This document shows positions 22,001-58,531 of a DNA stretch of 64,000 nucleotides, one piece after another. The stretch comes from Mytilus edulis. Its lineage: Eukaryota. The translations under genes were made by a program, and so were the position numbers. The notes beneath the pieces were generated by a model that was not told the origin of the DNA, searched no databases, and saw only the letters and a list, made by a program, of their open reading frames with translations. Location of the stretch: assembly GCF_963676685.1 (NCBI RefSeq), contig NC_092346.1:53196001-53260000 (forward strand). The letters are read 5' to 3'. Each line of letters opens with the position of its first letter. Positions within the stretch are counted from its first letter, which is position 1.

Positions 22001-25000
22001 TCGACTGAGGGTCATGTTTCTATACTGTGATAGTCTTTCTGTCATAGTAGTGGTTAATTGATAAGTATGGTAACACATAGCAAAAAGTACACTCATATTA
22101 CAATGATAATTGAAAACATAATTTCTCTTATTTGGACAAGTGGCCATTGTTTTTGTTCAAACGGTATATTTTATCATTTACAAATTTGAATTACCATGTT
22201 GTTTTCTTTCCATTTTAGGTGTGGAAGTAGGAACAGTATGGGCCACAAGAATGGAATGCTGTCGTGATGGCATACACAGGTATTGGATGTTCTCATTAAT
22301 AATGCTAAAGCAAACAAGAGTGCACACACTGAAATGTCTGGCCTTCTTTACTAATCATTGATATTATGTTGATAGTCCTAAGTATAAAGCTTTATTACAA
22401 CTGTCACATAAACGTTACATTAACCAAGATAACTAAACAAAGACCAATGAACCATGAAAATGAGGTCAAGGTCAGATGAACCATGTCAGGCTGACATGAA
22501 CAGCTTACAATGCTTCCATAAAACAAATATAGTTGACCTAATACTTATAGTTTAAGAAAAATAGACCAAAACACAAAAACTTAAGACTGAGCAATGAACC
22601 GTGAAAATGAGGTCAAGGTCAAATAAAACCTGCGCGACTAATATATATATCATAAAATATTTCCATACACTAAATAAAGTTGACCTATGGCGTATAGTAT
22701 CAGATGAAAAGACCAAAACTCAAAAAACTTAACTTTGACCACTGAACCATGAAAATGAGGTCAAGGTCAGATGACATCTGTCCGCTAGACATGTTCACCT
22801 TACAATTATTCCATACAACAAATATAGTAGACCTATTGCATAAAGTATGAGAAAAATAGACCAAAACACAAAAACTTAACTATAACCACTGAACCATGAA
22901 AATGAGGTCAAGGTCAGATGACACCTGCCAGTTGGACATGTACACCTTACAGTCCTTCCATACACCGAATATACTAGCCCTATTGCTTATAGTATCTGTG
23001 ATATGGACTTGACCACCAAAACTTAACCTTGTTCACTGATCCATGAAATGAGGTCGAGGTCATGTGAAAACTGTCTGACGGGCATGAGGACCTTGCAAGG
23101 TACGCACATACCAAATATAGTTATCCTATTACTTATAATAAGAGAGAATTCAAAAAATCTGAACTTTTTTTTCAAGTGGTCACTGAACCATGAAAATGAG
23201 GTCAAGGACATTGGACATGTGACTGACGGAAACTTCGTAACATGAGGCTTTTACTGTAAAAGCACATATTTTCGTGGGGGATTTAATTTCGTTTATTTTG
23301 TGGATAAGAAGTATCCACGAAATTAAAACCCCAACGAAAATTTAACTGTAGATTTACATTATTTTATGATCTGACTAAATCTTATTGACATTATATAATT
23401 GATGAACATAAATGCAGACAATGAAATAAATAGGTTAATTGATTAGACATCGATATTCAAAGGTTTCCTTTAAGTCAGATGATAATCCTAATCCTTTGTT
23501 TGTACAGTAATTAATAATGATCAAGAACTGTCAATCAATGTCATTTAACAGTCTAATGTGTCTGTAATGCCCTCAAGTCGTAATACATTTATCACACAAT
23601 CATTGTCCTTGAATAAAACATCAAAGGTGTGTAACAGCCAATTAGCGTATGCAGGTTACAACACTTGATTAGTGCTCACTGTTACTATGAAATGCAATTA
23701 TTGATTTTTCCCAACGGCAAAAGTTCACATCAGTTTTATTGAGTATTGTCAATTATAAAGTGACATTTGTATAATTTTTTTCTAAACTTAAAAACCACGA
23801 AAATTAATCCCCACGAACTTACTTTTGGATACAAAACCACGAAATTTTAACCCCACGAAAATTAATGTTTATACAGTATATACAAAGTATGAAGCATCCA
23901 GGTCTTCCATCTTCTAAAATATAAAGCTTTAAAGAAGTGAGCTAACACCGCCGCCGCTGGATCACTATCCCTATGTCGAGCTTTCTGCATCAAAAGTTGC
24001 AGGCTCGACAAAAATCATTTGAAAATTTTATGTTTGTTTATTAGAATGTTAGAAGTAGAAATGTTGAAGTTTAGAGCTAAAGTGAAACTCCTTACAAAAT
24101 CCAATACAAGGACCACACTGAGATTTTGATGCTCAAATTATTGCTTGATTTTCAAACAAAATATGGTTCCTAGCTTAATATGTGTTTGGGTTACTTGTAT
24201 GATACCTCACCTGTATCACCATACTAACTTCCATCATTTATCATCCAGACAGTCAGAATATTATAGAAATCCTTTAAGAATGGTAAATTTATTTCCATTT
24301 GTTCCTATCACATTGAAATTAAGATTTGGGTGAATGGAGATTAAAGAAATTTCCAAATCATCTGAAATCAGGTCAGTCAGGCTATGGCAAGCAAACCTGT
24401 TTAATTTTGATTTTGGCTTAAATATTAATAAATCTTTGTGGAGTCCATCAACTCCCAATTTCAAAGAAAAGATTATGAAATAAAATAATTTGGTTATAAA
24501 TTATGAATTCAAATCTTGAATTATTATTAAAGGCAGAACATGTAAAGCACACAATGAAATCAGTATGTTTAATTTGTTATATAAAAATAAAAGGATGTGG
24601 TAGAGTCACCAATGAGACAACTCGACACAAGAGACGGGTCAACATTTTTAATTAATTCTCCATAGGCGACAATGGTAACGTTTTCCTCCATTGCTCAGTC
24701 CATATCGTTTACTTGAACATGTAGGATGGCTCATATCGAAGCTGATACATTTATACATGTTTGGTTAAATTTTCGGGGTGGCAAGTGAGATTACTTTTTT
24801 CGCAATTTGCTGGACCCCGGAAGATGGTGAAAAATGTCACTCTCCACATGAAATAATCCCAAAATTCTAATCATAAAACTCAATAAAAAAATTGTCCTTT
24901 CTAATAATTTATTTCAGGTCAAATCTACATATTTCTTTTCTCATCACATCAGCTCTATAAAACAGTTCTTATTGTTCATTTATGTCCATTTTTAAAATCA

Positions 25001-28000
25001 CAGCATCCACAATTGTATGGCGGACTTATATTGTTTTTTAATTACGTCATCTGAGTTCCTCATCTCAAGGTCTATTAGGGATCCTGACCCATATTAGATC
25101 AGCAAATGTCAGATTCCACTTGTATTGCAGTATGAATTCCATCGGTAGACCTTTTCGAACAATTCTGTGAAGTTTTTTTCCGCATCTGAAATAGAATAAG
25201 TTAATTTTTAGTATTTTTAAGTAAGCATGCTTATTACTGTTCCTTATATCTTTTAGTAGAAAAAAGCACAAAATCCATATGTTATCAATCCACAATTTAG
25301 ACATTAATTAAGACTTTTCATAGCTTAAAGTGCCATTCAACAAACCTTCATTACCTTACTGACTTTATTAAAATCATCATGTTTAGATGATAAAGCATGA
25401 AAATATTGTGTTTTTTACTGTAAATAAGGTAAATTTAAGGATTTTTTCACTCAGAAAATAATGTTTTTGATATTTGTTTCTTTCAAATAAGGAATAGAAC
25501 ATTTTTATTTTTTTATAACTGTTAAGATCATTCACAGACCATTCTAAAACAGGTTTTAGTTTTAAAATCCATCAAGCAATAACCATTTTAGAGTTCTTTT
25601 TGTGTGAGTGTTCAAATAGGGAAAAATGGTGCTTTTCTTTGGTAAAGATAACATTGTGACGTCATCGCTTTTGTGACGTCATGACTTTATGGTGTCATAA
25701 TTTAGAATTGTACAAACATAACAGAGTGTGTATTTATTCAATAATGAAAGGGAAAAGGAAAAGAAACCAATATAAGGTTGGTAACCAAGCCCATCTATTG
25801 CGTTTTGTATCCCTAACAACAGATCAAGATTGTGGTGTTAATAATAGTGTTGCTCCATCTACAGCTCCATCTACACCTCCATCTACACAGGTTTTAAAAA
25901 ATTTATCTATGCAAGTTTCACCTGCACCACCTAAATTTAAATTATCTAATTCCGCTACAGATTTGGCAACTAAAAACACCACAGAATCTGTCTGGTTACC
26001 CCGCCTTACAGAAAAGGAATTCAAGCTGTACTCAAAAGAGAGTTACGATAAAAAATCTTATGTAGCCCCCCAAACTGAAAAATGTGCGACTACAGTCAAA
26101 CTACTAAGACCGCATAAATTGTCAGATGATTATTTAGATGAATATTTAGAGGATAAAAGTACTGAAAATAGAACGGTAGATAGAGATCTTAATATTTTAA
26201 TGATCAATAGTCTTATAATATGTCATTTAAATAAAAGTCCAAAGTGTGTTGTTCCACATTTTGAACTGGTACAAGAGACTCAATGGGGTCTTGGTTGGAT
26301 TTGGAAAATGAAGTGTACCAATTGTAAATTTATTTCAGAAAAATATAAACTATTTAGAGAAATTGACACAGGACGTGCTGGTCGCAAGAGTGCTACAATT
26401 AACTATGGGTTTCAGACTGGCGTGATAAACTGTAATATTGGTAATGATAGCGCGCAACTACTTTTAACTAGTTCATGTATTCCTCCTATGTCGAAAGGAA
26501 CAATGCAGAGAATAACAAATACTGTTTGTGACAAGGTTGTTAAACTTGCGGAAAATGAAACCGAACAAGTGGTTGAGAGTTTCAGAAAGAGAAATGAAAC
26601 CTTAGGGTTAAATAAAAATAGTCCTATAAAATTGCAAATGGATGGTACCTATCAGAGTGTGCATATAAAAAGTAGGCATAAAATGGGACAAAATGCATCA
26701 CAAGTCATTGGTATTGCCTGTGAAAATGAAACTGACAATCATGATATCATTGGTTTTCACCTTGTAAACAAACTTTGCTGGGTTGGTGCATGGTTACGCG
26801 GTAAAGGTTATGACATTGAATGTCCTAATCACGAGTACTGCACATCAAATACAAATAGGCATGATCCTTTGAGTGAGAAGGATCTTGGGTATGAAATAGG
26901 TAAAAAAATTGCTAAACTTGATTTACTTGTGGACTATTGTACTACTGATGGGGATGCAAAAAGTGTACAAGGTTTACAAGAAGCCATGCAAGAAATATTT
27001 GACCCTTTATGGTCAGTAAATAGACTGGCAGATACTATACACCGGGGTCAAAGTCAGTTCCGTGAGGTATTGCGAGCAAAATTTAGTGTCGGTATGTTCC
27101 CTGGAGCTACAAAGGCTCAGAGGAATGATATTAAAATAGCTTTTGCCAATGATTTAAAATTACGTTCGCATGGTATAATGAAATGTTTATTTGCAAAATA
27201 TAATGGTGACCGACAACAAATTTCAAAATGTTTGCCACGCATTGTTAAGTCTGTAGTGAATTGTTATAGTGGTAATTGTAGCGATACGTGTAGATGGAGC
27301 ATAACACTATGTAATGGTGGTATAAAAACTAGTTGGTGGTACAAATCTATTAACCTTAGCAGTCATGGTTTACAAAATGGGTCTTTGAAACCAAATAAGA
27401 CTGACAAATTATTAATAGAATCATTGTTAGAAATGAAACTGTCTCAGACCGCATTAAATCAGATGCAATTTTTCAGCAATACAAATAAGTGTGAGTCCGT
27501 CAATAGGACAATTTCTACATACCTACCGAAGAATAAGAATTTTTCTCGCAATGCCTTAGGCCGTGCATCTGCAGCAGTCTTGAAAGTCAATAATAAACGG
27601 GATGTTGCATTGGCTAAGACCCTAAAAGCTGTAGGTTGTGGTCTGGGTAGAAAGTCTCGTGCTGTAGTGGCTCTGAAAAAAATACGTAAACGTGAAATAT
27701 ATGATTGTGCATATCAAAAAAGTTTACGTGTCAAATTAAACAGGTTAAAAGCTCGTAAAAAACAGGCTATCGATTTCTTGTTAAACAAGAGAGTGCGAAA
27801 CAGGTTGATTAGTGGATATAAAAAACATCAGTTAGAACCAAAGCTATGTCAGAATTCAAGTCCGAAAGAATTCGTTCCACAGCCAGGTTGTAGTTCATGG
27901 CCAGATTAACATTTATATTAAAAGGTTACACAATATGGTTTTCTTTCAGCCTTTCAGGAAGCATATGTAGTTATTTATTTATTTACAGAGAATACTAAAC

Positions 28001-31000
28001 ATCTTATATTATATTAAAACAAACACTTTTCAGGAATATATGAGCATGATATGAGTTAGTTGTGTTTTTTTTAAATTAAAAAGTTTGTTTATTTTAAGTT
28101 TGTTATGAAAATGGGATAATGGTCCAAGACACTGAAATAAACCTTGTATCAGACAAAAAGACCACTTCATATCTCCCAATGCAATGCATCCAGCCACAGT
28201 ACATGCATTTATTGGAAAACACATACCTTGAAACAAAATTATAAACAAAATAAAACCATGTAAAATGAATATTACAACATTAGGTCATTCACAGTTTGCC
28301 TTTGTAACTCGATGTCATATTTGGATTTTTTCCTTTCTGTTATTTTTTCTTTTGTTTTTTGTTAACTTATTTAATTAATGACTGTCATACTTTGTTCATT
28401 GATTTGTCTCTATGTTTCACTTTCATTTAGTTCTCTACCGCATGTTTACTTCCTGTGATCACCTGTTGATTGAATGACCCAGTTTTCTGACACAGTAATG
28501 AAACCATCAAGAGTTACTCCCCTTGCACTGTAAAAATTAGTAAACACTGGCGAAAAAAACCACATAAATGTTTGACTGAGCTTATAATCTTGCATAAACA
28601 TGTTTGCCATGTTTGTTTCAGTGTCTTGGGGGTATGAGGGTGGGCTTTTTTCCCATTTTCGTTTTTTACTTGTGTTAAAAACTTGTATTTTCAGAGATGA
28701 TTAATGTGGAGGTAAAATGTGCAAGGTGCATATGTTTACTACAAAATCATAACAAACCACAATTTCAGATTCAGCATGCAGTTAGTATAGTTTGTGCCAT
28801 GCACAATATGTGTGGTGCATTGGTGTGCAGCTACACATATTTTTCTTTGATTGTTAATCTCCCGAGGTTCTAAAACAATATGGTCTGTATTCACACACAA
28901 TGCATTATGACAAAGGTGTGAAGCATCTAAATTTTTGGCTAAATCAGTAGATTTCAATTGCAAAATTTTTGCTAAACGTGCAACATTCATTTTAGTACGT
29001 TTGGCATTTGGGTATGTGACATTGATCATCCCTAGAATATAATTATTTCTCCTCTGAGTGGCCCCAGTCCAAATAATGCATGCCCCATTTTTTGCCTCTT
29101 CACTGTTTATAAGTATAAAATTGGTATATTTTTGATAAAAATCTAAATTATTGGTAGCCATTTTGTATTCTTTTTAATCAAATAGCACTAAAAGAGTGTA
29201 ACTGACCTCGATTTCAGCAGCTGCCATCCGAAATTGTGATCATTGAACCATGAAACACTCCAACACCTTTGAAATAATAGTTCACAATTTGGGTCAACAT
29301 TTTTAATTAATTCTCCATAGGCGACAATGGTAACGTTTTCCTCCATTGCTCAGTCCATATCGTTTACTTGAACATGTAGGATGGCTCATATCGAAGCTGA
29401 TACATTTATACATGTTTGGTTAAATTTTCGGGGTGGCAAGTGAGATTACTTTTTTCGCAATTTGCTGGACCCCGGAAGATGGTGAAAAATGTCACTCTCC
29501 ACATGAAATAATCCCAAAATTCTAATCATAAAACTCAATAAAAAAATTGTCCTTTCTAATAATTTATTTCAGGTCAAATCTACATATTTCTTTTCTCATC
29601 ACATCAGCTCTATAAAACAGTTCTTATTGTTCATTTATGTCCATTTTTAAAATCACAGCATCCACAATTGTATGGCGGACTTATATTGTTTTTTAATTAC
29701 GTCATCTGAGTTCCTCATCTCAAGGTCTATTAGGGATCCTGACCCAGACCAAATGGCGTAGAAGTTTTGATAGCGCCATCCTTGTTATTTCCCCTGATTT
29801 TTATCATAGATAGATTTTTTTTGTGATTTGTAGGCCTACAGTAGCAGGAATCCATGCTGGACAAGATGGATCATTTTCTATTGCTCTCTCTGGTGGATAT
29901 GAAGACAATATTGACTTGGGAGATTGTTTTACTTACACAGGAGAAGGTTATTACATCTCTGTTGTTTCTGTCGTTACTATAAAAGTAAATTTCTTAAATG
30001 ATTTATGTAATTAAGGCCTAAGTATAAACTGCCTCTTATGGGCAGTTTATTTTTTGATAGACCATGTTTTAATGTGACAACTTTCGTAAGCAACATATAA
30101 ACAACATAGCAGCATCAAATTATGTCACACATACATGCATATACAAACCAGAAAAATTATTTACCATGTTTTACAGGTGGCTAATGTTGATAAACTAAAA
30201 TTAAAGGAATAATAAAGATTATTCACTTTTTCCCTTGTCAAATTTTAAATGGATTTACTTTGATGCCCTCAATTTGAACCCACTTACAAAAAAGGTTTGT
30301 AAGCTATTCTGACCAGAAGACACATTTTTTCGGATAAAATGGGAAAAATACGGTGTAATTGAAATAATGGACAATGACTGTTACTTCAGTGTCAAGGTAC
30401 AGACACCATGCAGAATGCTATAAACTAATTAGAAATCAGTAATTGATTAAATTCATATTGATAAAAGGTATAGGTCAGTTAGACAGCAACACAACAACAA
30501 CATAAAAACAGAGAAGACCTCTACAGGTCAACAATGCAATATTTGTAACATGCTTCTTGGAAGAAATTTTGGTAGTTATCTAGTAATATTGACCATAATG
30601 GCATTAAAAGAGTTATAATATTAGTAATTTTATTTTGCAGGAGGCAGAGATTTGAAAGGGACAGCTAACAAACATAAGGTAAAATATGGTCTTTAACTCT
30701 CCCTACTTAGAATACTGAGGTCTTTTGAAAGTCATACTCCTACTATTAAGTGTCGGGGTAGTGTGTGCTTGTTTGTTAGTCCATCATCCTGCACATTGTA
30801 AATTAAAACATCTAAAGCAGTTAGATAAAAGAAATTGACGAGTATTAATGGCCAGCCCAGCTCAACAAGTTCTATCTTTGAAGTCTTTTTTAATTTGAGA
30901 AAATTATGTCAACCTTTTTTTTTTAGCAACTACTCCTGAAAACTTAATTTATCATTTTTTGACATTGTTCCAATATCTTAAGGTTGAAAATGCAAAAATT

Positions 31001-38727: not shown

Positions 38728-39757
38728 ACAAGTGTGCACACGCTGAATTTTCTTGTCTTTTTTACTAACCATTGATATTATGTGGATAGTCCTGAATATA
38801 ATGCTTTATTACAACTAGCACATAAATTTAATGTAATCCAAGAAAGAAAAACCAAACCAAACGAGAAATACATGTACACCTTACAATTATTCAATGAACT
38901 AAATATAGTTGATCTATTGCTTATAGTTTCCAAGAAACAGACTTAACCAAAACTAAACATTGACCAATGAACCATGAAAATGAGGTCAAGGTCAGATGGA
39001 CCATGCCAGGCAGACATGTACACCTTACAATCAATCTGCGTTAAATATGGTTGTCCTATTGCTTATAGTATCTAAGAAACAAACTTAACCTTGACAAATG
39101 AACCACTAAAATGAGGTCAAGGTCATATGATACATGCCTGACAGACATACATCTCACAATCCTCCCATTCAACAAATAGTAAGAAAAAAGACCAGACACA
39201 ATAACTTAACACTGAGCAATAGACGGATAAAAATGGGGTCAAGGTCAATTAAAACTGATGAGACTGACATATACATCATTAAATATTTCCATACACCAAA
39301 TATAGTTGACCTATTGCATATACTGGTAGTATTAGAAAAAATACAAACACTCAAAAACTTTGACCACAGAACCATGAAAATGAGGTCACAGTCATATAAC
39401 ACCTGCCAGCTGGACATATACAGCTAACAATCTTTTCATACACCAAATATACTAGACCTATTGCTTATAATATCTGAGATATGGACTTGCCCATCAAAAC
39501 TTAACATTGTTTACTGATCCATGAAATGAGGTCATGGTCCAGTAAAAAATCTGAACTTCTTTTTTCAAGTAGTCACTGAACCATGAAAATGAGCACAATG
39601 GACATGTGATAGACGGAAACTTTGTAACATAAGGTATCTATATACAAAGTATGAAGCATTCAGGTCTTCTGCCTTCTAAGAGGTTGGCTAAAGCTGCCTG
39701 ATCACTATCCCTATGTTGAGCTTCCTGTAACAAAAGTGGCAGGATGGATCGACAAAA
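38728..39757 (+). mobile_element. Third copy of the AACCATGAAAATGAGGTCAAGG HINE-like family
   Basis: Same 5' (ACAAGTGTGCACACGCTGAA), internal units and 3' end (GATCACTATCCCTATGTTGAGC...TCGACAAAAA) as 22314-24014. Confidence 0.7.
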
Positions 39758-40305: not shown

Positions 40306-43300
40306 CTATTCATCTGACCATAACTGTTGTAAAGGTTTATGACCAGATTCTTCAATAATGTTTTGGGTAATCACTAGAATTTCTCTGTGTAGGTCTTCTA
40401 TAGACTTGTCAGCTTCAACTTCCTACAATATATAATATAAACTTTTAATTTACAATTTACCTTGGATTTCAGTATTTTTGTTAATACATATATATTTTCT
40501 TATTTTCTTTATATGTAATCAATGGTTTCATTAATACAATGTATGTGTTGTTCATAAACACCCAAAGGTAGATGCACACTTAGTATAATTCTTTATTTAA
40601 TTTGTATTTTTAAATATACACACATGCATAGTTCATAATTCACATGCCTGCAGCAGATTGAAATTGGGAGTATTCAAAACTCTAACTGCATCCAAAACTA
40701 TGTGTGTAAAAGACCTGTCTCATTTAAATGCTATCTTGATGAGCAAAGGTTACACCAATTCAATGTCAGAAACTTTCATATTTAGGAGTAGTTAGCACCT
40801 TTCTCTTTGATTGGTAGATATGTGCTTGTCAAAAGATGTAAAAACTAGATGGGTCAAAGCAACACGAATGGCCCGTCTCCAAAAGTTGAAAAAATGTGCA
40901 ATTTCAATAACACATGTGGACACAAACATGATGGTAGTGTCACATAAAAAAAAACCAGCTCAAAATCTGGAGGGGTATAGAAAAATGTCTGTATAACTGT
41001 CATTTTCAACAATTTTGTAAACCCTTTATTTTAATAAAAATTAGCAGAGCGGAACAAAACTTAAAACTTTATCTATAACTTATCATTGTTAGCTCACATA
41101 CCAGAAGTCAGCCCAATATCTGAAAGCATTTACAAAAAAGGTCCGCATAACTGATTTTCAAAAATTTATCAAAGTCAAAAGCTCGAAATTACAGCAAAAA
41201 TTAGCCGAACCGAACGAAATTTAAACTTGATCTGTAACTCATCAAGAGTAACTCACAAACCAAAAATCATCCCAATATCTGAAAGCATTTAGAAAAAAAG
41301 TCTGTATAACTGTGATTTTCAACAATTTATCAAAGTCCAAAGCCCGTAATTTCGGTAAAAATTAGCCGACCAGAACAAAACTTAAACTTGATTGGTTAAC
41401 TCACATGCCAAAAATCATCCCAATATCTGAAAGCGTTTAGAAAAAAAGTCCATATAACTTTGATTATCAAAAATTATCTAAGTCCAAAGCCCGTAATTTC
41501 GGCAAAAATTAGCCGAGCAGAACAAAACTAAAAAAACTTGATTGGTTAACTCACATACCAAAAATCATCCCAATATCTGAAAGCGTTTAGAAAAGTCCAT
41601 ATAACTGTGATTTTCAACAATTTATCAAAGTCCACGGCCCGTAATTTTGGCAAAAATTAGTGGAGCAGAACAAACTTAAACTTGATCTGTAACTCATCAT
41701 GAAGAACTTACATTCCATAGATCAGCCCAATATATGAAGCGGTTTTGAAAAAACTCTGTATAATGGTTTGTTGTGGAATGACGGAATTACTGACAAGGGT
41801 AAAACTATATGTCCCCGACCACTTAGTGGCGGGGCCATAAAAAAATGATTCAAAATTTGTCCTTGTCCCTCTAGAGATGAATTAAATTCAAGTTTGTTTG
41901 TAGCTGATCTTCAGAGTTGAAATCACTATCATGACATTGTACATGTATAAATAATATAACAGTATGATCACATTTAAAGCCACAGAAACATGTTGGATGA
42001 ACTCACACTATATCTCCTACTTGAATTCCAGTTTTGAAATTTTTTAATCTTTAACATAACTAAATCCCATCGTATGAAAATTTGAATTTCCTTGAGCAAA
42101 CACAGCATTTTATGCACAGAAGTCCCACTAATATTATAATAGATTTCAAAGAAAAAACACAGCAAGGTATACTCCAAACTTATTTTCGAATTTTACATGT
42201 ACAACATCATATGTAAGCCCCACAAAACAGTTTGAATGAATTATTTCCTCCTTGATGTCCTTCATGACAATAAAATCTTGAAAAAAACACATCACATTTT
42301 AAGAAGCAAAATTGCTTTAAAAAATCTAAGAAGTGAATTCAAATAAAAAAAATCCAATATTGTATGCACAATGACACCAAAAGATTTCAAACATGGCAAA
42401 TAATAATCCAAAATGAGAATCTTGAAGGGACATGTGAAGAAATGAACAACATATCCATCTGAAAATTTAAACTGTAAACACCTGAACAGCTATTTCTTGT
42501 TTCACTGGCAGCTGGACAATACTATATATAAGGGCTAGAATTTTAAAGAAGCATTTAGTGTGTAAAAACAGTTTAATTTTCAAACATAGTAATACATATT
42601 TAATTTAATCTTTTACTGATTTAGAATTTTAGGTAAAAAATAGATAAATTATATATATCAGGGATTTAAAACAATGAAAACCAAAACTATTTTCTTCCCA
42701 ATCAATTTTTTAATAGAATAATCCTAGGTAAGAAAAAGTTCAGGAAAAAATCATGCTGAAACTTTGGGTTAGGTGAATAAAAATCTTTACAGGTAGCATC
42801 AAGGTAGATTTAAATCTAACAATACAAATGCAACTGGTCAATTTAAATGTCCCTATTGTGTTGTCAATTTTAAAAACAGGTTGAGCTATAGGTAAAATTT
42901 TACAGTAACACCTATAAGCAACTCACTGTAACTGAAATTCTATTACTAATTTTATGAGATGAAAAGTTATTATCACTGCTTATGTTCTCTGTCAGTAGCA
43001 TTGGTATTTTATAAATGGAGAAAAATCTGGAATCAAAACTTTTAATAGCTGGTTACCATGGTAACCAGCACATGAAAATACATTACCTGCCATGTTGGAT
43101 CTTTCAACTTTTCAAAATTTGTTGAGACTTTTTGTTGAAATTCTGTTTGTTCATATCTCTCTTTTCCAAAAGTTCCTCTAGCTGCTGCCTCTTCTGTACT
43201 TAATGTAAGGTAGATAACTCTGTCTGGTTTCGGTAAACCAACATCTGGCTGTTTACACCAATTCATATCAAACCCCTATTATAAATAACATATTTTATTT

Positions 43301-46300
43301 AACAAATGTCCTATAAAATGCCTCTGAAAAATTATAAAATGTTTACACATAAAACATTTTGAAACTGTAGATTTTTATTTATTCAGAATCACAAAACTTA
43401 TTTTTTATACTTTAAAGAAAACAAATTAACAATATTTAAGTGGAAACTGTTCATCAAAAGCATTAATGACATGAGGAATATGTTGAAGGCTGTACTGACC
43501 TATAATAATAGTTTACTTTTTACCAATTGTGACTTCGAGGGAGAGTTGTCTCATTGGCACTCATACCAATGCCAATGTCAACAGTGTTAATTAAATTATA
43601 ATATATTGCTATTATTTTGTTGAGTGTATTTCCTGTAGTATATATTTTTTTTATTACACATGTTACATACTGTCTATGTACAAATTTATTGCATGTTATT
43701 ATTTATAATAATATTGTTTGTATGATTTATATGCCCTCCTGGGGCCCGTGAATATTCTATTCTATTCTATTCGTACCACATCTTATATCTATCTACATGC
43801 TCACATGTACATCTTATATCTATCTACATGCTCACATACATGTATGTGTCTATATAACAAATTTTGAGATAATCAAAATAGAGCATGTTAAAATTAAATT
43901 TACATTACAAGGTAACAGTACCTCTTTAGCTGCTGTAAATGCCACACCAGAAAAAGCATATCTGTCCACTATCAATGTAGTCCCGGCTTCTAACATGGAT
44001 TTCATTTTAGGCCTGAAATACAAGTGAACTAATAGATTCAACAAATTGTAGCTTTGACCTATATTCAAGGATGTTTAATAATATCTAACGTAGTAAGAGA
44101 TACAATGTTAATTTTCTCATGCAATTTCTGTTTGAAAATAAAACAAGGTTAAATTTTTTTTTTTAATTCAGACACAAAAGGTATCTAAACATCCACAAAA
44201 TATATGGTCTTAAAAGGGTTAAATGTAACAAGCTGATACATGTACATGTTGGCACTATAGTGTATGGCTAATCCTAAAATATTTCAAAGAACATGAACCT
44301 ATGGGTCTGACCACCTTAACTTTCCATGTGCTCAAATGGATGATTATATACCAACCTCATGAACTTGTTTACATTCACACATTATTTATCATAAAATGCT
44401 GTTGGTCAACAATGTACATGTATGTATGTACATTTGTACATGTTGGATGCTATGGAGCAGGACATGTATAATGCAACATTTGATGAACAGAAATATGCTG
44501 CCAGGAGCCAATAGTAATTGACCAAATAAAAATGCCATACAGCCTAGTGTTTGTAAAAATTATATATAAACAAACATATTTATAACATTTTATAACTAAA
44601 AAGAAATCCAAATGTATATATTTCATTTATTTCTAATAAGAAGCATACATTTTTTATTTTTACTTTACCAGCTGCTTCATATTGCTGGTCTTAATTGATT
44701 TTTTGGGTGGATTTACAAAAACAATGTATTTGTACTGTTTTCCTAATGGGTTTTTTCATCGGCATTTGTTTTAAAACAATCATTGTAATGTAATCATTGT
44801 AAATAAGTTTAATGTAATTATTCAGCTTAGCTTTGGGTGCTGTGATTAGCAATTAAACAATTTTCTATTCTATTCTGTACATGTATTATGTTTTTACTTA
44901 ACCTTTGTAATTAGCAAACCTATATTAAAATTGAAAAAAATGTAACATGCAAATGTCAAACTTACACCATTTCCCATCTGTTGGCTGAAAATAGAAGATG
45001 AACTGAATGGTCTTCTATTTCACATTTGTTACTAAGGTAACCATCAATCATTTTACCAATTGTTGTTGTTCTGTCTACAAAGAAAACAATTCAAACATTT
45101 CATCAAGCTGAAGTTTTATAGTTACAGTAGCCTGTTAGTAAGTAAAATAGTTTATTAAAGTGTCACATATTAAATATTTGTACATATAGATATACAATGT
45201 ATCTTCTCTTACCACCATGGAACCATCTTAGTGTTTCTATCACAATTTGTTACATATGAGATTTTCTATACTGCAGTAACATCTTGGATATCAATTATTT
45301 CGATTCTAATAGGACAAATACAGCAATTATTTTGGATGAAAGCACTCTAGGTGGAGGCAAATATTTGCCGTTACCATAAATAAATGCACTATCAAATAGG
45401 AGTAAAAGGATGGAGCAAACTGAATTAGTGACATGCTTAAACTACCGGTATTTACCATAACGTATTTAGATAGTTTTTGGAGGAAATTAAATGATAATTT
45501 ACTATTTGTCTTATATGTAAAAAAAAAAAAAAAAAGGCTTATTTGGGTATACATTTACAATTAATTCTCCATAGGCCGTAATGGTAACGTTTTCCTCCGT
45601 TGCTCAGTCCATATCGTTTACTTGAACATGTATGATGGCTCATATCGAAGCTGATACATTTATACATGTCTGGTTAAATTTTCGGGGTGGCAAGTGAGAT
45701 TACTTTTTTCGCAAATTGATGGACCCCGGAAGATGGTGAAAAATGTCAGTCTCCTCATGAAATAATCCCAAAATTCTGATCATAAAATTCAATGAAAAAA
45801 TTGTCCTTTCTAATAATTTATTTCAGGTCAAATCTACATCTTTCTTTTCTCATCACACCAGCTCTATAAAACAGTTCTTATTGTTCATTTATGTCCATTT
45901 TTAAAATCACAGCATCCACAATTGTATGGCGGACTAATATTTTTTTTAATTACGTCATCTGAGTTCCTCATCTCAAGGTCTATTAGGGATCCTGACCCAT
46001 ATTGAAATTCATACTTCTGATTTTTCCAAATATTTTTATGTGATCTTCATCGGTATAACATTCTGAATAAATCTGTGTATTTTTGTCCATTTCTGAAAAA
46101 AAATAAAGTTGTTTTAGCACTATAAGGCAATGCCACTTTCGTCGCTATATTCATTTATTTTGAATACAATGTGTTTGTATAATTAATTTCTTCCAGAATA
46201 CCTTCACTAGTCAAAACAAGGACAAAACTTCTGATTATAACCTTTAATTACAATACACAGACCCTGTTAAAGCATTCTATAAAATTTTCTTGTGCCTTAC

Positions 46301-49300
46301 AGTGCATTTTGACAGAGAAATTATGCAAAAATGAAGATTTTATAAAAAAACCAACACCAAAATAATTATTCTTACTAGTGGAAATCTGGTATTTAAAACT
46401 GTGGAAAGCACTCTTAACTACTTGGAAAGTCATCTTTATCATATAATTAGAGTGCAATATAGTGCAAATTTTCAAAACTTGTCCTTTCACATAATTCTAT
46501 TTGAGAAAAAATGTTTTTAACATGTATTTCAGTGAAAACCTTTTATTAGTGAGAAATCCACATGAGGTTTTAAAGGAAACATTGTGACATCACATGTATT
46601 ATGGCGTCATTAAATAACGACAGATCAAAATAGAGCTAAATATAGTTTGCAGTGTTACGTGAGAAACAGTTGCCGCAAGATTTAACTCGAAATATTGAGT
46701 CGAAACGATCTGTAACTAAGCCTTTTCATTTAATACCAAGACCATAGCAACAGTTTTCATATTTGCATATTTTTAACATACCGACTGTAATTTCAATTGC
46801 ATAAATACCATAAATAAACAATTTAGAGCTTGCCTAATAAAGCAAAATGCTTACCAGTTATTCAGGACTTTTTAAAACCTCTAGTTTGCCATCTCAGGCT
46901 AAAAAGTAATGATATGTCTGGAACTGAAATAAGACAAAAAAATTACTCAGGCTGTGTTATCATTTGATTTAAATACATAAGTACTATTGAGAGAGAAAAA
47001 TCTAATTCTTGGAAGTTTAATCACAAAGAAAGACAAATGCTTCTCCCTTGTGGCTTAGTCACCTTCATTTAAACCTTTTATTTTAGAAGCAATGGGTAGT
47101 AGCTAACTAGCTTAATAGTTGAATAGGTGCAGAAATATTGTTTTCAAAAAGGTTTGACCCTCCCCCTTTTTCACTGAGAAATGACAATATCTATTGTTTT
47201 GCTCAAGCGCATTAAAAATATTAGTTCATGATTTTCTTAAAACATGTACATGTTTTTTCTGTTTTTTTTGCATATGATATCTACTGACCAGGGGTCAAAT
47301 CATTGGATAAAAGCACATGCGATGATGTATCTCACTTTACTCGTATGAAGTGTGTTATCTCCCTTGATTATCAGGTATTCCTGTAGACCGAAGTGATAAT
47401 TACATAACAAAGACTATATTGTGTCATGTTTACTTACAATTTACTGTAATAATATTTAAAAGTTGTTTCTTGCCTTTTTCAATATAGTAAACAAATTCCT
47501 TTCGGATCTCTCGGAAGTAAACAAAGTGATGATTGTGCCTAAAAAAAGTGTTCAGCCCCGTGCCAGTAATGCATTTTAAAAGCAAAGTTTCATTGAGTTT
47601 TTGCTGATCTTTATCAATAATATTTATCTTAAACCATTTATAATAACTAGGTATAAATAAAAAACTACTAACCATCATTTTCGGTGGTGTACAAGGTGAA
47701 ATCATCCATAAATCAGCCTGAAAACTTCTGGAAGTAAGCTTCTAATTTGGGTATACATTTACAATTAATTCTCCATAGGCCGTAATGGTAACGTTTTCCT
47801 CCGTTGCTCAGTCCATATCGTTTACTTGAACATGTATGATGGCTCATATCGAAGCTGATACATTTATACATGTCTGGTTAAATTTTCGGGGTGGCAAGTG
47901 AGATTACTTTTTTCGCAAATTGATGGACCCCGGAAGATGGTGAAAAATGTCAGTCTCCTCATGAAATAATCCCAAAATTCTGATCATAAAATTCAATGAA
48001 AAAATTGTCCTTTCTAATAATTTATTTCAGGTCAAATCTACATCTTTCTTTTCTCATCACACCAGCTCTATAAAACAGTTCTTATTGTTCATTTATGTCC
48101 ATTTTTAAAATCACAGCATCCACAATTGTATGGCGGACTAATATTTTTTTTAATTACGTCATCTGAGTTCCTCATCTCAAGGTCTATTAGGGATCCTGAC
48201 CCATTTCACATTTATACCTCATTTTAGCAATCGTCTGTTTATGTTTCCTTGTTGTGATGATTTTCGCTCTCACAATCCTGTATTTGCCTGTAAAATGCTT
48301 ATATTCTTAGGTCATCGTTCTATGACATCTGGCACCTCATTCATGAAAAAGCATATGACGTGGGAGTACGATCAGAACAGCCCTGGCAATATATTCATAT
48401 TTTACCACGGGTGTGTACTCATAGTGTTTGAAGGACGTCATGTTAGAATCTATGTTGTACTAGAAAATTATGAAGTTAAGGACGTTTACACAAATAAATT
48501 ACTGTAAATTCAGAAATTATTGCATGTATTCATTATAGTGATTTTATCATTTTAGACTAAAATGTGGATCTAATTTTTTCTTTCGATATTCAGAAAAATC
48601 CTGTTTGATTCGAAATAATTCAAAACTGACTGATCTAAGGGGGGGGGGGGGGGGGCTCCAGTCATGCTTCAATGATTCCCTATATAATCAACCAAATTTT
48701 TCCCACAAAAGGGGGGGGACCGGAGCCCCCCCCCCCCCCCACTGGATCCCCCTATGATAGTTCAAGCGGGCAGATAATTCTCAGGTCAACTTGGACTGAT
48801 TTCCAAATAGTGATAAGGTGCATAGCTCACTGTGCAGTATTGGTTTTGCCCATTGTTGAAGGCCTATCAGAATACAGAATGACTAATTCAGTGTCAATTA
48901 ATGTAAGGAAAAAAATAGTTTTATATTGGTCAGGACATTAGGCAGAACTATGTAAGCAGTACAAGATCCCAAAGTTTATGTCAAATTTTGAGGACCCTCA
49001 TCAAAAATTTGCTCATAGAGGTGTGCAAGTAATCACATAATCAAAAATTTTAAAATAAAGCGGCAAACTGATGTTCGCCTCAAACTACCTGGAAAACGCA
49101 TAGCTTCCGTTTTAATTCCCTTTTCATTCAAAGCTGCAACAAGTTTTTTACATTGAGTTGTTTTGCCACTATGATCACATCCTTCAAATACAATAAGAGC
49201 TCCTCTAACTTCAGCTGTCGACGGCATCATCAATGTTCTTTTTAAATTTTGCGCCAAATTTATCGGAACACTTCTGACTTTTACCATAGACTGAACAAGC

Positions 49301-51870: not shown

Positions 51871-52674
51871 TAAACAAAATACTACATAGAAAACTAAAGA
51901 CAGAGCAACAAGTTCCCAACAAAACTGAATGTTACCTTTACCTGGTGCTCCGGAAGGGTAAGCATATGTAACTTTAAGGCTGAACTGCAGCCGATAGATT
52001 TACATTCAGGTTTTTCGAAGGCTCGTTTTATTAAATACAAAAGTTTCTGTCTGATAAGATAACGTGAAAGTGTAGTGTAGATAGTCGAAAGGTCAAAACT
52101 GTTAACAGAATAGAAAGTACAATTAAAAGCACTTAATCATTGATATGTCTAAAGCATACAACGACCTTTTTACAATCCAAAAATAAGGAATTCCTTTATT
52201 TGTATATTATGCTCCTATGACACAATTTAATCAAATAAATCGGATGGTATATATCCTGAAAAAAATAATCTATGTAAAGATATTTTTGTGAGCATTATGC
52301 TTCACTGATATTTCAATATGTTGACGGATGGTCGAACAAGGATATCCATACGCAATAAAACAGTATTATGATTTTAATTGGGGAAAAAATGTAGCAAAAA
52401 AAGTATTTCTAGAAGACCGGTGTTTACTCTGTTGAAACAGCCGAGTAGTCATTCTTCCTTGTTTGTTCATTACTATTTTTCTTTTAAGTGATATAAATTA
52501 TTAATACAATAGCTTGTCTAGGGTCATTATCAATAACTATAGATCTATCAATTTATTCGTGTAACTCTTTACATATTTAGTCTTCCGATAATGAAATCTG
52601 AACTGACTTAGAAGATCTAGAAAGATAAGCTGAACCAGTTATCTATATCATGAAAACATAGTTCAATATCAAAA

Positions 52675-55600
52675 ATGGAGAAAGTTTCAACTATCTCCAG
52701 TAACAAAATTACAAACAATAGTGGTAAAACCGAATATGACTCTAAGAATACTAGTTCTAAATTCACATGCTATCTATGTTTTGTAGCAGTATTTGGAGCA
52801 CTCGGTGGTTTTTCGTTTGGATATGATACTGGGGTTGTTTCAGGAGCATTACTCTTTATACGGGCAGAATTCGAATTAGATTCGTTTGACCAGGAAGTAC
52901 TTGTAAGTGTTACTATAGCAACTGCCATGATAACAGCATTCATGTCTGGCTACCTTGGAGATAAAATTGGAAGAAGACCTTCCATGTTGATCGGTAGTTT
53001 TGTTTTTACAGTTTCTACAATACTCAATGGAGTTTCTAAGACTTACTGGATGTTACTACTTGGACGTGGTTTACTAGGCATTGGAATTGGTAAGTCTGCT
53101 TGAAGGTGGTTTGTTCGTCACTAATCCTATTGGAGTTCAACTTCTATTCGATATGTTATTAGGCATGACTTGTGAAATCATTTGCGAGTTATTTTTATCG
53201 TTCAAACAATTGGTATTGATTCTAAGTTTCAGTGCGACTTAGCAATATACATGTGTTTACAACTAACATTGCAAGAGTAAATTAAATATGCTACATTTAT
53301 ATAAATAAATTTTTACTCGCAATCAAAGATCAGAACGTATATGCCAAGTGAATGACATGATAACTATATACTTTTGCTATATTTGCAAACAGCATAGCCG
53401 GCCCCTAAATGTTTGGTTCCAATGTTTTTTTAAATAATAAGTAAATCTGTGAATATACATGCAGAGCTTACAAATTGAAATTAATTCCACTCTTTTCTGC
53501 ATAAATGAGAGATAACCGAGTCCATTTGTTTTGCTGCGTAAAGCCGCCAACATTATTTGGACCGAAAAGGGACTTGAATGCCGTAATATGTAAGTAAGAT
53601 TATGGGAAAGTTTTATTGAAATATGGAGAAGTTGTGGATATTGATGTTTATCTTACCTCCTATACATTTATAGGAATATGATTGGTTAAAAGCAACCGTG
53701 TGGAGACCGTGTATATTCCATATTAGGTTAGTAGATCTCGCAAAGATCTTATTCGATTTATAGAGGACCACAAAAGATCAAAAGCTTAAATGGGAAGCTA
53801 TAATAAAGAATATTCGAAAGCTTTGTTGCTAGTCATTCTCTTGTTTAAAAGGAGTTGTGGTTACAAATAACGAACATACGAACGGATTAAACGAACAGAC
53901 GAACGGATTAAACGAATCAAGTTGCGAACGAAAACACCACTTGACTATCAGTAAGCATGAATATGATTGACAATTGTAACATGTTTTTTTATGATTAATA
54001 GGAGTAATACTAATGATATCACCAGTTTATATTGCTGAATGTTCACCGGTAAAGTACAGGGGACCATTAGTTACACTGTGTACTGGTATGATGGCGATAG
54101 GAAGGACAGTAGCCAGCATTGTAGATGGCGCGTTTAGTTATGATAAGACTGGATGGAGGTAAAATGAACTCACTTAAATTTATTATATTTGTTTACAATT
54201 CACTATTATTTATCGAAACTATAAAAGATCTTTTTAAAAAAAATATTTTTTTAAAGATCTTATAGAAATTCATTCATTTTTCAGAATCTTTGATAAAAAG
54301 AGAATTGCAATGCAAATAATGATGCTTTTCCAAACATGTAGTCTTTGTGTATTTTAGGTACATGCTAGGCCTCACTGGTGTGCCATCATTAGTACAATTC
54401 ATAGGATTCTTATTCCTGCCCGAGACACCTCGTTATTTAGTGCGGAATGGCAAGGAAGACATGGCGACACACATTCTACAGAGGATTCGAGGAAGATCTG
54501 ATGTTTCGGACGATATAAAACAAATTAAAGAAATATGCCAACAAGAGATAAAAGAACTCAAAGAACTTCAAGGTTATTTCTAATTTTTTATAACATAAAC
54601 AAATCTTAAGTGTCTTTCGTTTAATTAGTGAAAAATCTGAAGTTTACTAAAATGTCTTTTAAAAACAGAAAAAGACGAGAAGAGTAGAAAAATAATCAAT
54701 TATTTTAAATAAATTAAAGACGAATTTTGTACTTGTTAAGTGATACTGGTTTAAGCTTTGTCAATTAGGTGATACTATGTAAAATTATAAAGAAAGGTTA
54801 TTTTGTAAGGAAATGAATGGACATTAAAGAAGATAATGTGCACACCATCAGTTCGCAGAGCACTTATAGTTGGAGTTTCTACATCTTTAATTCAACAACT
54901 TAGTGGCATAAATACAGTGATGTGAGTACGTACACTATAATTCTTATCGTAATTACAATTTGTAGATATGTAAAAAAATAAATAAAAAAAAAATGGTTTA
55001 GTTAATTTCCTAATTTAAGATATATACGAGTAAATTCAGTTAATGTAACATTTTCATTAACTGTTTTAAAGACTTCAATCATTATTCCTTTGATTAAGTG
55101 TAATACAAGTTAATTTCAACTTACAACTGCAAGGGAGGCACAATGATCATTTGATCGTTATTTCCAAGTTGAACGTTTGAATTGAATCAACTTATTATGT
55201 TACTGCCTGCTAAAAGAAGTACTGTTTGAAACTGAGTTGACCAAGTGCACTATTTTCAATGAATATCTGTATCTGAAGATTGTTTGGCTCTTTCTACAGG
55301 TACTATAGTGGTACTATCATCCAAATGTCAGGTGTGAGAGATGAAATAATGGCAATATGGCTGACAGCTGTCACTGCAGGCGTGAGCTGTATTTTTACTT
55401 TGTCAGGCATTTATCTTGTGGAAAAAGTCGGCAGACGTAAACTCATTTTGAGTAGCCTTGCAGGTACCATCTGATAATGTTACAATGTTAGAGATTTAAA
55501 GGGGAGTTGATATCGGTCAACTGACGCTTAAGTAGTATTCTGCAAAGTAAAAGACTAGTTATATAAAACAACATATTAACGCAATCCTTGATCATCTGTT

Positions 55601-58531
55601 CCAGAAAATTACAATTGCTGAATTAAATCCTTTTCGTTTGGTCTTTATTGGATAATTGTCTCATTGGCATAATTTGTACTACCGGTGGAGGGTAGTCTTA
55701 GCAGTTGCGGATCCTGTATTTCTAAAGGGTGCAGGCCAATGTTTGAAGATATGGTTGTAAATATTAAGTCTATGCATTTATAATGTATGAAGCTCCATAA
55801 AGGGGGTTGGCAATGCACACACCTCTTCCCTAAATTCGCACTAAATCTCCTTATTTATTGTTACCTTTCAAATCATGCATGATATTGGTATTCTTACTAA
55901 TGTATTGCAAACCCTCACATTATGTCATCTTTTGGGAATGTGTGTCTCAAATCGCAACATTCATCGCTGGAATGACTAAACATAATGGCTTGTCTTTTGT
56001 GGCATTTTCAGAAGTTTTCTATTTTTCAGGTGTTCTTTTAAGTTTGATTGTTTTAGCTGTTGCCTTCCAGTTGTCTGAAATCAACTCACCAGAAGTTACT
56101 TATAGTGAGGATGTTAACAATACATGCTTATCTTACAGGTAACACATACTGTAATTATACTTATAAATTATTTGCCAAAGAGTGTGAAAAAAATATTGTC
56201 TCAACACTCTTCCGTGATTTCAATTATTTTTGTATTTTTTTTAGAATAAGATATTTAAAAACAGTATTTATTTCTACATCATTTGGTTTCTGGTGAAGAG
56301 TTGTATTGTAGCAATCTTTTAATTTTTATAAAAATTTATATGCAGACCATTGGCATATAATGGAACAACTCTCCACCAGCACGGCACCAGAGACAAAATG
56401 TCGTAGACGTAAACAATAATAGGTTATTGTATGGCCCTTAATTAACAATTAGCAAAACCAATACCACATAGCCAGCTATAAAAAGCCTTGAGATGACAAA
56501 TGTAAAACAATTCGAATAAAAAGAAAAAATAACGGCATGATTTATATACAAAACAACAAACTTGATTTAACATATAGCCATGTTTTTTTTTATCCAATTT
56601 GATCAAAGCTAAAAGAAAATTGCGAAAAAATGTGTATAAATTACTGAAGTATTTGAAGATATTTTCTGAATTTTACTGTTGCCTTTGTAGTTCCTGTGCA
56701 ACATGTATCAAAGAACCAAATTGTGGATTTTGTTATATAGAAGACGGTTATTCTGCAATTAATGGTTCATGTACACAAAAGTTAGATACTATGACAGCTA
56801 AGTATGGTAGATGCAATTCAACGGAGTTATCAGATGGCTTAATCTGGGGAGCAACATCGTGTCCATCTCAATATTTTTGGATGTGCTTACTAGGTCTCTC
56901 GTTATATCTTATAACGTTTTCTCCAGGTTTGTTTTCTTCATATCAATTGTCTCAAACTTTAATTTCATCACCAATAAGGATGTTTATAAACGTGGCAACC
57001 AAGTCAATCTTTACAATTCGATCTAAGGATATTGGTTGATAAAATTAAATGTATTCTCTTATTTTTGAGTCTGTCATAAAAAAAAACTTTTGTGGAAAAC
57101 CCAAAAAAATGTAAAAATCATATAAAGCAACATTCTGTTCTCAAAATCATGAACTGCGTGTTCTTAAATATTATTTAAGAATTTCAAAATCATCATGTGC
57201 TGCTAAGAAAACATGATATGTGTGTGTTTTTTTGTTATTCGTGTCGTTATGTTACTGTCTGCTTTACGTAAACTCCACATGTATTTCAGGCATTGGTCCT
57301 TTACCGATGACAATTAACTCAGAGATATATCCTTTGTGGGCCAGGAGTACTTGTATGGCGATTGCATCATCAACAAATTGGTTATTTTCATTGGTAATTT
57401 CATTGTCGTTCTTGTCTCTGACGGATAGTGTTGGAGCTTATGGTAAGTCTGTAATTCCTGATTTCATATGTACACATTTGTGTTTCATTCCTAAATTGTG
57501 ATGTCATATGTTGTACTTCGATTTGTGTAAGCTAATGACCGAAATCTTTTTCATCGTATCCGACAAATAAACCGGTACCATCAAATTTAAAGTTCATATC
57601 TAATTCAACCTTCTTTGTCTATTTCACCAGTTCTCTGTAGGATGGTGCATTTATACAGACTGGTATAGTCACACTTGTTTGCAATATATGTTAAAAATTA
57701 ATGTCATTTCAAAGAAAATTCTTTCGGAATAAAAATATCTGTATTCCGGCCTTCACTGAAAGATATATAAGCAGTGGTTTTCAAACAATATCACAATGAC
57801 TGTTCTGTATGCTCTTTATTTCATTGTGGGGCATCTCCCTGATTCTATTAAAACGAAGAAAGCAATTGTAAGTGCAATTCCTTTCATATATTGGTTATTG
57901 ATAGTACTTATTTTTCTCTCATTTATATCGACTCATAGCCATTTTCCCCCTTAGTCCTCTGGGGAAAAACAATGTTAAGATAGCAGTGCACAATTAAGAT
58001 TAAAGCTTAAATCATACCGGTACAAGAATATTATTTTTTATGCCCCATTAATAGACATTATGTTTTCTGGTCTGTGCGTCCGTTCGTTCATTCGTTCGTT
58101 CGTTCGTCCGTTTGTTCGTCTGTCTGTCCCGCTTCAGGTTAAAGTTTTTGGTCGAGGTAGCTTTTGATAGAGTTGAAGTCCAATCAACTTGAAACTTAGT
58201 AAACATGTTCCTTGTGATATGATCTTTTTAATTTTAATGCCAAATTAGAGATTTTATACCATTTTCAAGGTCTACTGAACATAGAAAATGATAGTGCGGA
58301 TGGGGCATCCGTGAACTTGGAACACATTCTTATTTTTTTTGTGTCTTTCCAGGAACTTATTGGTTATTTGCTGCTGTTGTGGTGCTAGGATTTATCTTTC
58401 TCTTCTTCACCTTACCAGAAACGAAAGATAAAAAATTGGAGGACGTTGAATCTTTATTTGAAACGCCATGGTGTAGCTGTGGGAGATCTGGCTCTTTAGA
58501 AATAAACAGAACAACGAACAAACCAGTCTGA
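52675..58531 (+). CDS. SLC2A13: Proton myo-inositol cotransporter-like sugar porter (HMIT), 9 coding exons
   Basis: Exons 52675-53089, 54002-54158, 54358-54572, 54810-54921, 55300-55463, 56030-56138, 56691-56926, 57290-57442, 58353-58531. Motifs: [66 protein letters not shown], the HMIT-type Cys-rich loop ([13 protein letters not shown]), [17 protein letters not shown]. One-to-one orthology is not established. Confidence 0.9.
58035..58332. mobile_element. Short HINE-like element with (CGTT)n microsatellite
   Basis: TTTTTATGCCCCA...(CGTT)n/(CTGT)n...GGGGCATCCGTG: sub-terminal inverted repeat ATGCCCC/GGGGCAT. Confidence 0.6.

Follow-up and report, generated by a model that had tools for sequence, protein, structure and literature searches.

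DNA transposons with direct repeats at their ends are already known as KolobokP, and Kojima and Bao (2022; PMC9587614) describe these elements together with their non-autonomous families, solo repeats and multimers. Elements of this type carry long terminal direct repeats (LTDR) near 450 or 660 bp that have 5'-RR..YY-3' ends and a short terminal inverted repeat (TIR) of their own, and that enclose an interior (INT). A target site duplication (TSD) of 3-5 bp lies beyond the outer LTDR ends, solo LTDRs, multimers and INT-INT junctions occur, and LTDR-sharing autonomous relatives code for a DDD/E transposase as well as an antisense His-Me finger nuclease. According to a review, the KolobokP model still awaits experiment. 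The present analysis concerns an element at 45545..48202 of a 64,000-nucleotide stretch of Mytilus edulis DNA (the window: assembly GCF_963676685.1, contig NC_092346.1, positions 53,196,001 to 53,260,000), and this element is almost certainly a copy of a non-autonomous KolobokP family, arranged LTDR-INT-LTDR with a 4-bp A..T TSD. Such elements have already been published, along with their non-autonomous forms, solos and multimers; what is added here is evidence on how the composite structure persists. It consists of a measurement of repeat equalisation, a polarity rule in tandem arrays, a target that is strictly (Y)ANNT(R), and an age of the ends that does not match the age of the interior. 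The explanation considered probable overall is that the window holds a young non-autonomous copy, likely moved in trans, whose ends were likely reset by excision of an inner unit from a tandem array.

On the forward strand, the element runs from a left TSD ATTT (45541..45544) through a left LTDR of 454 bp with GG...CC ends (45545..45998), a non-coding INT of 1,750 bp that starts ATAT and ends ATTT (45999..47748), and a right LTDR of 454 bp with the same sequence as the left (47749..48202), to a right TSD ATTT (48203..48206). Its left TIR is eroded to a 4-bp match with the right end, compared with 6 bp in an autonomous neighbour (24636..29745, forward strand) that shares the LTDR and is referred to below as the helper; one repeat is thereby present as four copies in the window, two in each element. 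The earlier note, made from the letters alone, had proposed identical 454-bp direct repeats, about 21 differences to the autonomous repeats, a closer match within elements than between them, an ATTT TSD and a 1.75-kb interior without a transposase, and each of these proposals is borne out. The exact left/right repeat run, flanks included, spans 45541-46000 in the left copy, and the LTDR pair shows 0/454 differences; 20 substitutions and one gap (95.4%) separate it from the helper's repeats, which are likewise identical to each other. The longest stop-free frame in the INT is only 103 aa, tblastx finds no transposase or nuclease remnant in it, and an Rfam search of the INT returned 0 matches at E<=0.1.

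Within the window alone the TSD is ambiguous: the interiors of both elements start ATATT and end AATTT, and the right repeat resembles a solo with an ATTT TSD of its own. The ATTT TSD is settled by an empty site in paralogues of a host repeat, present in high copy number, which the insertion has split into a left half (45290..45540, start approximate) and a right half (48207..48420), neither half assigned to a strand; the right half gave 898 first-look candidates, of which 40 were scored at 87-90%. Five of 14 paralogues (L160-162, L166, L168; loci are cited as L, sequences of the assembly as C) read GGCTT, GCCTT or GACTT followed by a single 4-mer ATAT and CACA.TTAT, and in a sixth (L167) the flanks are likewise joined by one 4-mer, CTTT. 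The remaining 8/14 belong to subfamilies whose junction is shorter or otherwise different; the element is absent from that place in all of them. Since the paralogues join both outer flanks by a single 4-mer, the insertion in the window is one event with a 4-bp duplication. In contigs from read runs of other animals (four runs in each case), neither junction was bridged over 44500-49200 at 90% or over 48140-48300 at 97%; joints in these contigs that pass over the element, such as 45477 to 48236, derive from host-repeat paralogues.

The earlier note asked whether copies of the interior form a family with distinct TSDs, and this is what the genome shows: the same INT lies between LTDRs at dozens of loci with differing outer TSDs. 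A search with the INT gave 44 matches among the 40 scored of 701 candidates, at about 99% identity, and identity across copies spans 96.5-99.5%. Exact LTDR-INT junctions number 119 and INT-LTDR junctions 250 (77 of the first 100 listed belong to tandem arrays), against 560 INT starts within 3 mismatches, the first 100 listed of which are all exact. At least 45 partner loci (those of the window element's family) lie on chromosomes, and the family comprises two subfamilies about 3% apart; an 18-bp perfect palindrome in the INT (window 47239-47256) is kept in the young subfamily and has one base altered in the older. Solo LTDRs, multimers and INT-INT junctions are all present in the genome, and all 19 solos first sampled cluster with partner-type LTDRs on the tree.

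Perfect 4-bp TSDs flank 33/34 partner loci (three of which, fetched later, were used only for this count), 17/19 solos and 12/12 autonomous loci. Among 62 TSDs the first base is A in 62 and the last is T in 60; the preceding base is C or T in 56 and never A, and the following base is A or G in 51. A KolobokP-2-like family is likewise inserted at A..T sites, and both ends of the INT are themselves A..T 4-mers. The target here is thus (Y)ANNT(R), whereas PMC9587614, as far as covered, states no strong target preference. Classical Kolobok (Kol0) is TTAA-specific and can be set aside: 0/62 TSDs are TTAA.

The family is apparently unnamed in the literature covered, and it may carry a name in Repbase or in subscription journals, which lie outside that coverage. 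Three motifs of the partner INT gave 0 matches each in the consensus file of PMC9587614, and the part of its Table S1 that holds all Mytilus rows has no non-autonomous family for KolobokP-1_MyGa. Data S2 of the same work has many KolobokP-1_MyGa LTDR pairs and short runs about 1.75 kb apart with the interior unassigned, which is the spacing of the partner. The family identified here, of at least 250 units, was left unassigned by the published library. Its structural counterparts in that source include KolobokP-4N1_CorFlu (2,637 bp) and KolobokP-7N2_CorFlu, which are, like the partner, 2.6-kb LTDR-INT-LTDR elements with solos, multimers and INT-INT junctions that lose a few bases.

The two repeats of one element evolve largely together. 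The covered main text of PMC9587614 includes no test of left/right LTDR identity, and the comparison was made here on 31 elements, leaving out loci with truncated, inverted or unreached LTDRs (L032, L038, L040, L045, L046, L146, L152-154) and arrays without both ends (C2 35.34 Mb, C7 69.82 Mb, C1638). The two LTDRs of an element differ by 0.55 substitutions, against 3.64 for left-left and 3.90 for right-right comparisons, and 20/31 pairs are identical; random pairing of LTDRs gave a minimum of 3.0 substitutions in 1,000 trials. On the tree of left and right repeats, pairing is by element and not by side, the side labels needing 34 and 33 changes, no fewer than when shuffled. Ten autonomous loci follow the same pattern (0.6 within, 6.2 between).

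The extent of this equalisation can be read against the interior. LTDR substitutions private to one element number 38, of which 21 occur in both of its repeats and 17 are one-sided. The INT accumulated 119 private substitutions over 53,618 sites, a clock by which 62 one-sided LTDR variants are expected if the repeats were never equalised (17 seen, P ~1e-11), and the LTDR rate, counted as both plus half of one per site, is 0.0021, matching the INT private rate of 0.0022. As the one-sided and both-sided variants together match the INT rate, the LTDR evolved as a single sequence for about 70-71% of each terminal branch. Both-sided variants are evenly spread from position 6 to 429 (Kolmogorov-Smirnov p=0.81), and left and right drift apart in old copies (14 substitutions in L226, 4 in L122, 7 in L228). 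The earlier suggestion that the repeats are homogenised or copied in each transposition cycle therefore stands as regards homogenisation, shown by the pairing by element; copying in every cycle does not follow, and the data need only a recurrent reset.

Tandem arrays bear directly on how such a reset could occur. Ten partner arrays were read, and polarity was scored in the five that carry an informative variant at an end. In all five, a private state is retained at the 5' side of the first LTDR or at the 3' side of the last, and the inner LTDRs combine the 5' part of the right repeat with the 3' part of the left. Thus 5T is in all LTDRs except the first in the C4 69.24 Mb array (13/14); 153G is in all except the first and 436T in all except the last at C6 83.30 Mb, which shows both polarities in one array; 205T is in the first LTDR only at C1 43.76 Mb; 416C is in all except the last at C2 20.75 Mb; and the last LTDR at C7 69.82 Mb keeps 395+T, which the preceding 8 lack. 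This rule for array chimeras parallels the U3/U5 rule of long terminal repeats (LTRs). Such polarity is what unequal exchange would give if a left LTDR recombined with a right one; this process makes the inner LTDRs alike and cannot equalise the outer ends in place, and it is also the model in Fig. 5a/c of PMC9587614. A further array, at C5 86.84 Mb, has two interspersed unit types (7 T and 6 G).

Array exchange cannot equalise outer ends, and monomers nevertheless share variants near their ends, in L018 as close to the end as position 6; the simplest bridge is an origin of new monomers by excision of inner array units. In the proposed sequence, exchange of the left LTDR of one chromatid with the right LTDR of the other, perhaps triggered by the His-Me nuclease, as PMC9587614 proposes, would convert a monomer into (LTDR-INT)n-LTDR and a solo LTDR. 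Each inner LTDR of the array would then be chimeric, the right LTDR contributing the 5' part and the left LTDR the 3' part, and all inner LTDRs within one array would consequently be alike. The helper transposase would cut two adjacent inner LTDRs at their outer ends and insert the LTDR-INT-LTDR unit at a (Y)ANNT(R) site. The new copy would thus begin with identical ends bearing any variant of the array, and the two ends would diverge with age. This array route to identical ends is judged only slightly better than an even chance. It is supported by two monomers on other chromosomes that almost match unit types of the C5 86.84 Mb array, L010 (C4) lying 1 substitution from the T type and L019 (C7) one homopolymer base from the G type, and by the drift of the old, stationary L226.

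Several observations weigh on the other side. The inner variant 5T of the C4 array has 13/13 genome matches inside that array, so that no daughter was sampled, and the window copy has no sampled donor, its nearest other INT being 5 substitutions away. The direction of descent between the C5 array and L010 and L019 is not fixed by the data. L002 has the G state without the 6-bp duplication common to the C5 array, L010 and L019, and therefore recombination or a repeated event is needed. Polarity in the C1, C2 and C7 arrays rests on single-copy differences, one of them in a homopolymer. The left TIR of the window element is two changes away from that of the helper. Finally, polishing could inflate within-element identity in what is assembly sequence only, yet 11/31 elements keep differences.

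If the array route is true, KolobokP insertions can be dated from the divergence of their left and right LTDRs, as is done for LTR elements, and tandem arrays give rise to new copies and are not dead ends. A broader cycle is conceivable, and is put forward at somewhat less than even confidence, in which arrays serve as nurseries that give LTR-like end identity without reverse transcription, most new insertions being inner array units, and in which the ends are swappable modules, old interiors being re-armed by the LTDRs of an active helper. Arrays with marker variants make both the nursery and the swappable-end claims testable from long-read assemblies.

The alternative that survives best, although it is unlikely, is that transposition passes through an intermediate with one LTDR, either an LTDR-INT circle or a copied end, and that with each jump the transposase restores the second repeat, much as LTRs are regenerated by reverse transcription. 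The even spread of both-sided variants over the whole LTDR, position 6 included, is consistent with this, as is the 71% of terminal branch length that behaves as a single sequence, and a one-LTDR circle made by recombination yields the same 5'/3' polarity. At the junction of INT and right LTDR, L002 and L068 carry an extra AATT equal to their own left flank, and in L002 an ATAT resembling the start of the interior stands after the right LTDR, which would fit a copy of the left LTDR that took its flanks along. However, the step from a one-LTDR circle to two LTDRs at a new site is not known, the clean 4-bp TSD around two LTDRs at nearly every partner locus is what plain cut-and-paste of the outer ends predicts, and most units are in arrays, which supply identical ends without new chemistry.

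Four copies (L002 3240-3255, L033 2550-2570, L048 2550-2568, L068 5690-5712) have additional bases, AATT or AAATT, where the interior meets the right LTDR; these are palindromic with the interior end, like the footprint of an opened hairpin on flanking DNA. Hairpins of flanking DNA have been shown for Muta1 (PMC5499845). Because the extra bases in L002 and L068 also equal the left flank, two readings remain, a hairpin footprint or a copied flank. A fold-back at L152 (C2 19.14 Mb) reads LTDR, inverted LTDR-INT, INT-LTDR. Its two INTs meet head to head in a perfect palindrome, a single ATAT duplication lies outside, and the whole looks like a replicated hairpin end.

Gene conversion in place after insertion, perhaps started by cuts of the His-Me nuclease in the LTDR, is slightly less probable still. 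The repeats are merely 2.2 kb apart, the nuclease open reading frame (ORF) of the helper is intact, and the interspersed unit types of the C5 86.84 Mb array show exchange in place. Against conversion, arrays retain private 5' variants in the first and private 3' variants in the last LTDR after many exchanges, old copies diverge to the extent given above, and both-sided variants do not cluster around a cut site. Two independent solo LTDRs flanking single-copy host DNA, a reading that the ATTT on both sides of the right repeat and the frequency of solos with their own TSD (17/19) might have favoured, are refuted, as the same INT, always ending ATTT, recurs between LTDRs at loci with differing outer TSDs, and host-repeat paralogues join both outer flanks directly. 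A non-autonomous LTR retrotransposon of the kind called TRIM (terminal-repeat retrotransposon in miniature) or LARD (large retrotransposon derivative), its repeats copied by reverse transcription, would also show identical direct repeats, solos, tandem arrays and a 4-bp TSD, and is equally improbable: the termini are GG...CC and not TG...CA, and the autonomous partner has no reverse transcriptase. The resemblance in outcome, namely identical direct repeats, solos and tandem units, extends to LTR retrotransposons and TRIMs as well as to bacterial composite and IS26 pseudo-composite transposons, discussed in PMC9587614. The elements here differ from those systems in having no reverse transcriptase and in that the transposase gene of the helper sits in the interior, not in the repeats.

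The helper itself is a 5,110-bp KolobokP-1_MyGa-like element with mutually identical LTDRs of 455 bp (24636-25090 and 29291-29745) and TSD AGAC. Its only long ORFs are an intact Mutator-like DDD/E transposase of 721 aa on the forward strand (25744..27909; PF20700, E=1e-58; motifs MDG, TDGD, DxxH and CES in order) and, antisense on the reverse strand, a His-Me finger (His-Cys box) nuclease of 140 aa (28739..29161; PF05551, E=3.5e-13); both genes are absent from the partner. Compared by eye on nucleotide text with the KolobokP-1_MyGa consensus in Data S1 of PMC9587614, the starts and ends of LTDR and INT match, which indicates a host of the Mytilus type, and the sizes agree closely (5,127 bp, LTDR 456/455, TSD 4 and TIR 6 in the published table, Table S1, against 5,110, 455, 4 and 6). 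The partner, a non-coding element with ends about 95% like those of an intact helper family and with a shared A..T target, was likely moved in trans by a KolobokP-1_MyGa-like transposase, as judged from these sequence features. The helper family has many intact copies, near-identical ones among them, at other genome sites, and the neighbour therefore need not be the source of the transposase. The two elements lie 16 kb apart, with 0.02 pairs within 20 kb expected from rough counts (15 helper and 45 partner loci); this closeness is somewhat unlikely by chance, but nothing was found that makes the proximity causal.

Ends and interior of the partner differ in apparent age. Partner and helper LTDRs are about 95.4-95.6% identical, but the first 150-620 bp of the INT are only 60-64% identical, and the remainder of the INT is without similarity. 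The stretch 45999..46620 (forward strand), which remotely resembles the 5' non-coding interiors of the autonomous elements, has 60-64% identity to KolobokP-1-like and 61-70% to KolobokP-2-like sequences, against about 55% for shuffles, and its scores exceed the best of 20 shuffles. When the two autonomous families are compared, the LTDR (77%) has diverged to much the same degree as the 5' interior (76-82%). The partner is thus not a deletion product of the helper, an origin ruled out by the low identity of the first 620 bp beside the similar LTDRs. L226, an older KolobokP-1-type copy whose interior is 93.7% identical to the helper, has LTDRs that hold 4/8 partner-diagnostic states, and old solos hold 5 or 6 of 8, on branches that are weakly supported; a shallow LTDR radiation therefore spans both interiors. 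An interior of an old lineage likely acquired KolobokP-1-type LTDRs about 4-5% divergence ago, either through recombination or because LTDRs were replaced at the A..T ends of the interior, as the sequence comparison suggests. A strong constraint limited to the LTDR is less convincing as an alternative, since LTDR and interior diverged together in the autonomous families.

The recent mobilisation that the earlier note had suspected holds for the family (mean within-element divergence 0.12%) and is weakly indicated for the window copy, in which 0/454 bounds only d<0.7% and the INT has 5 private substitutions. KolobokP-H1_MyEd (2,664 bp), from PMC9587614, is of the same size class, and two such copies are in the genome (C5 10.36 Mb, C6 27.03 Mb). 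It was rejected as an identity for the partner: H1 is a plain internal deletion of KolobokP-2, 97-99% identical to the KolobokP-2 interior, and the partner did not arise by deletion from either helper family. Among 20 exact KolobokP-2 LTDR ends, none carries the partner INT.

Other arrangements of these families were seen elsewhere in the genome. In the partner copy L046 (C9 79.33 Mb), the left LTDR is truncated at its 5' side and the right LTDR contains an inverted LTDR. A very long array at C2 35.34 Mb and on unplaced contigs C980, C1241, C1692 and C1796 is built of 2,768-bp units, all of which, as far as read, share one ~567-bp insertion; on the chromosome the scaffold ends early in a unit, and the array may far exceed its assembled size. 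Large arrays of autonomous elements lie at C10 1.70-1.78 Mb and on C1975, in both orientations, with many open transposase frames and a spacing that is often 4.2 kb (INT-INT). More distant transposase families (39-41% identity) form tandem arrays too, at C12 58.93-58.95 Mb, on C72 and elsewhere.

Within the window there are also short arrays of ~147-160-bp units at 14175-14870, 22400-23230, 38870-39600 and 41020-41770, three of them related, whose depth and spacing are typical of satellites associated with transposable elements. The host genes of the window are the end of a Toll-like receptor gene with leucine-rich repeats and a Toll/interleukin-1 receptor domain (191-1111, forward strand), an exon of a peptidase S28 gene (7874-10047, reverse strand) and an exon of a sugar-transporter gene (52654-57039, forward strand).

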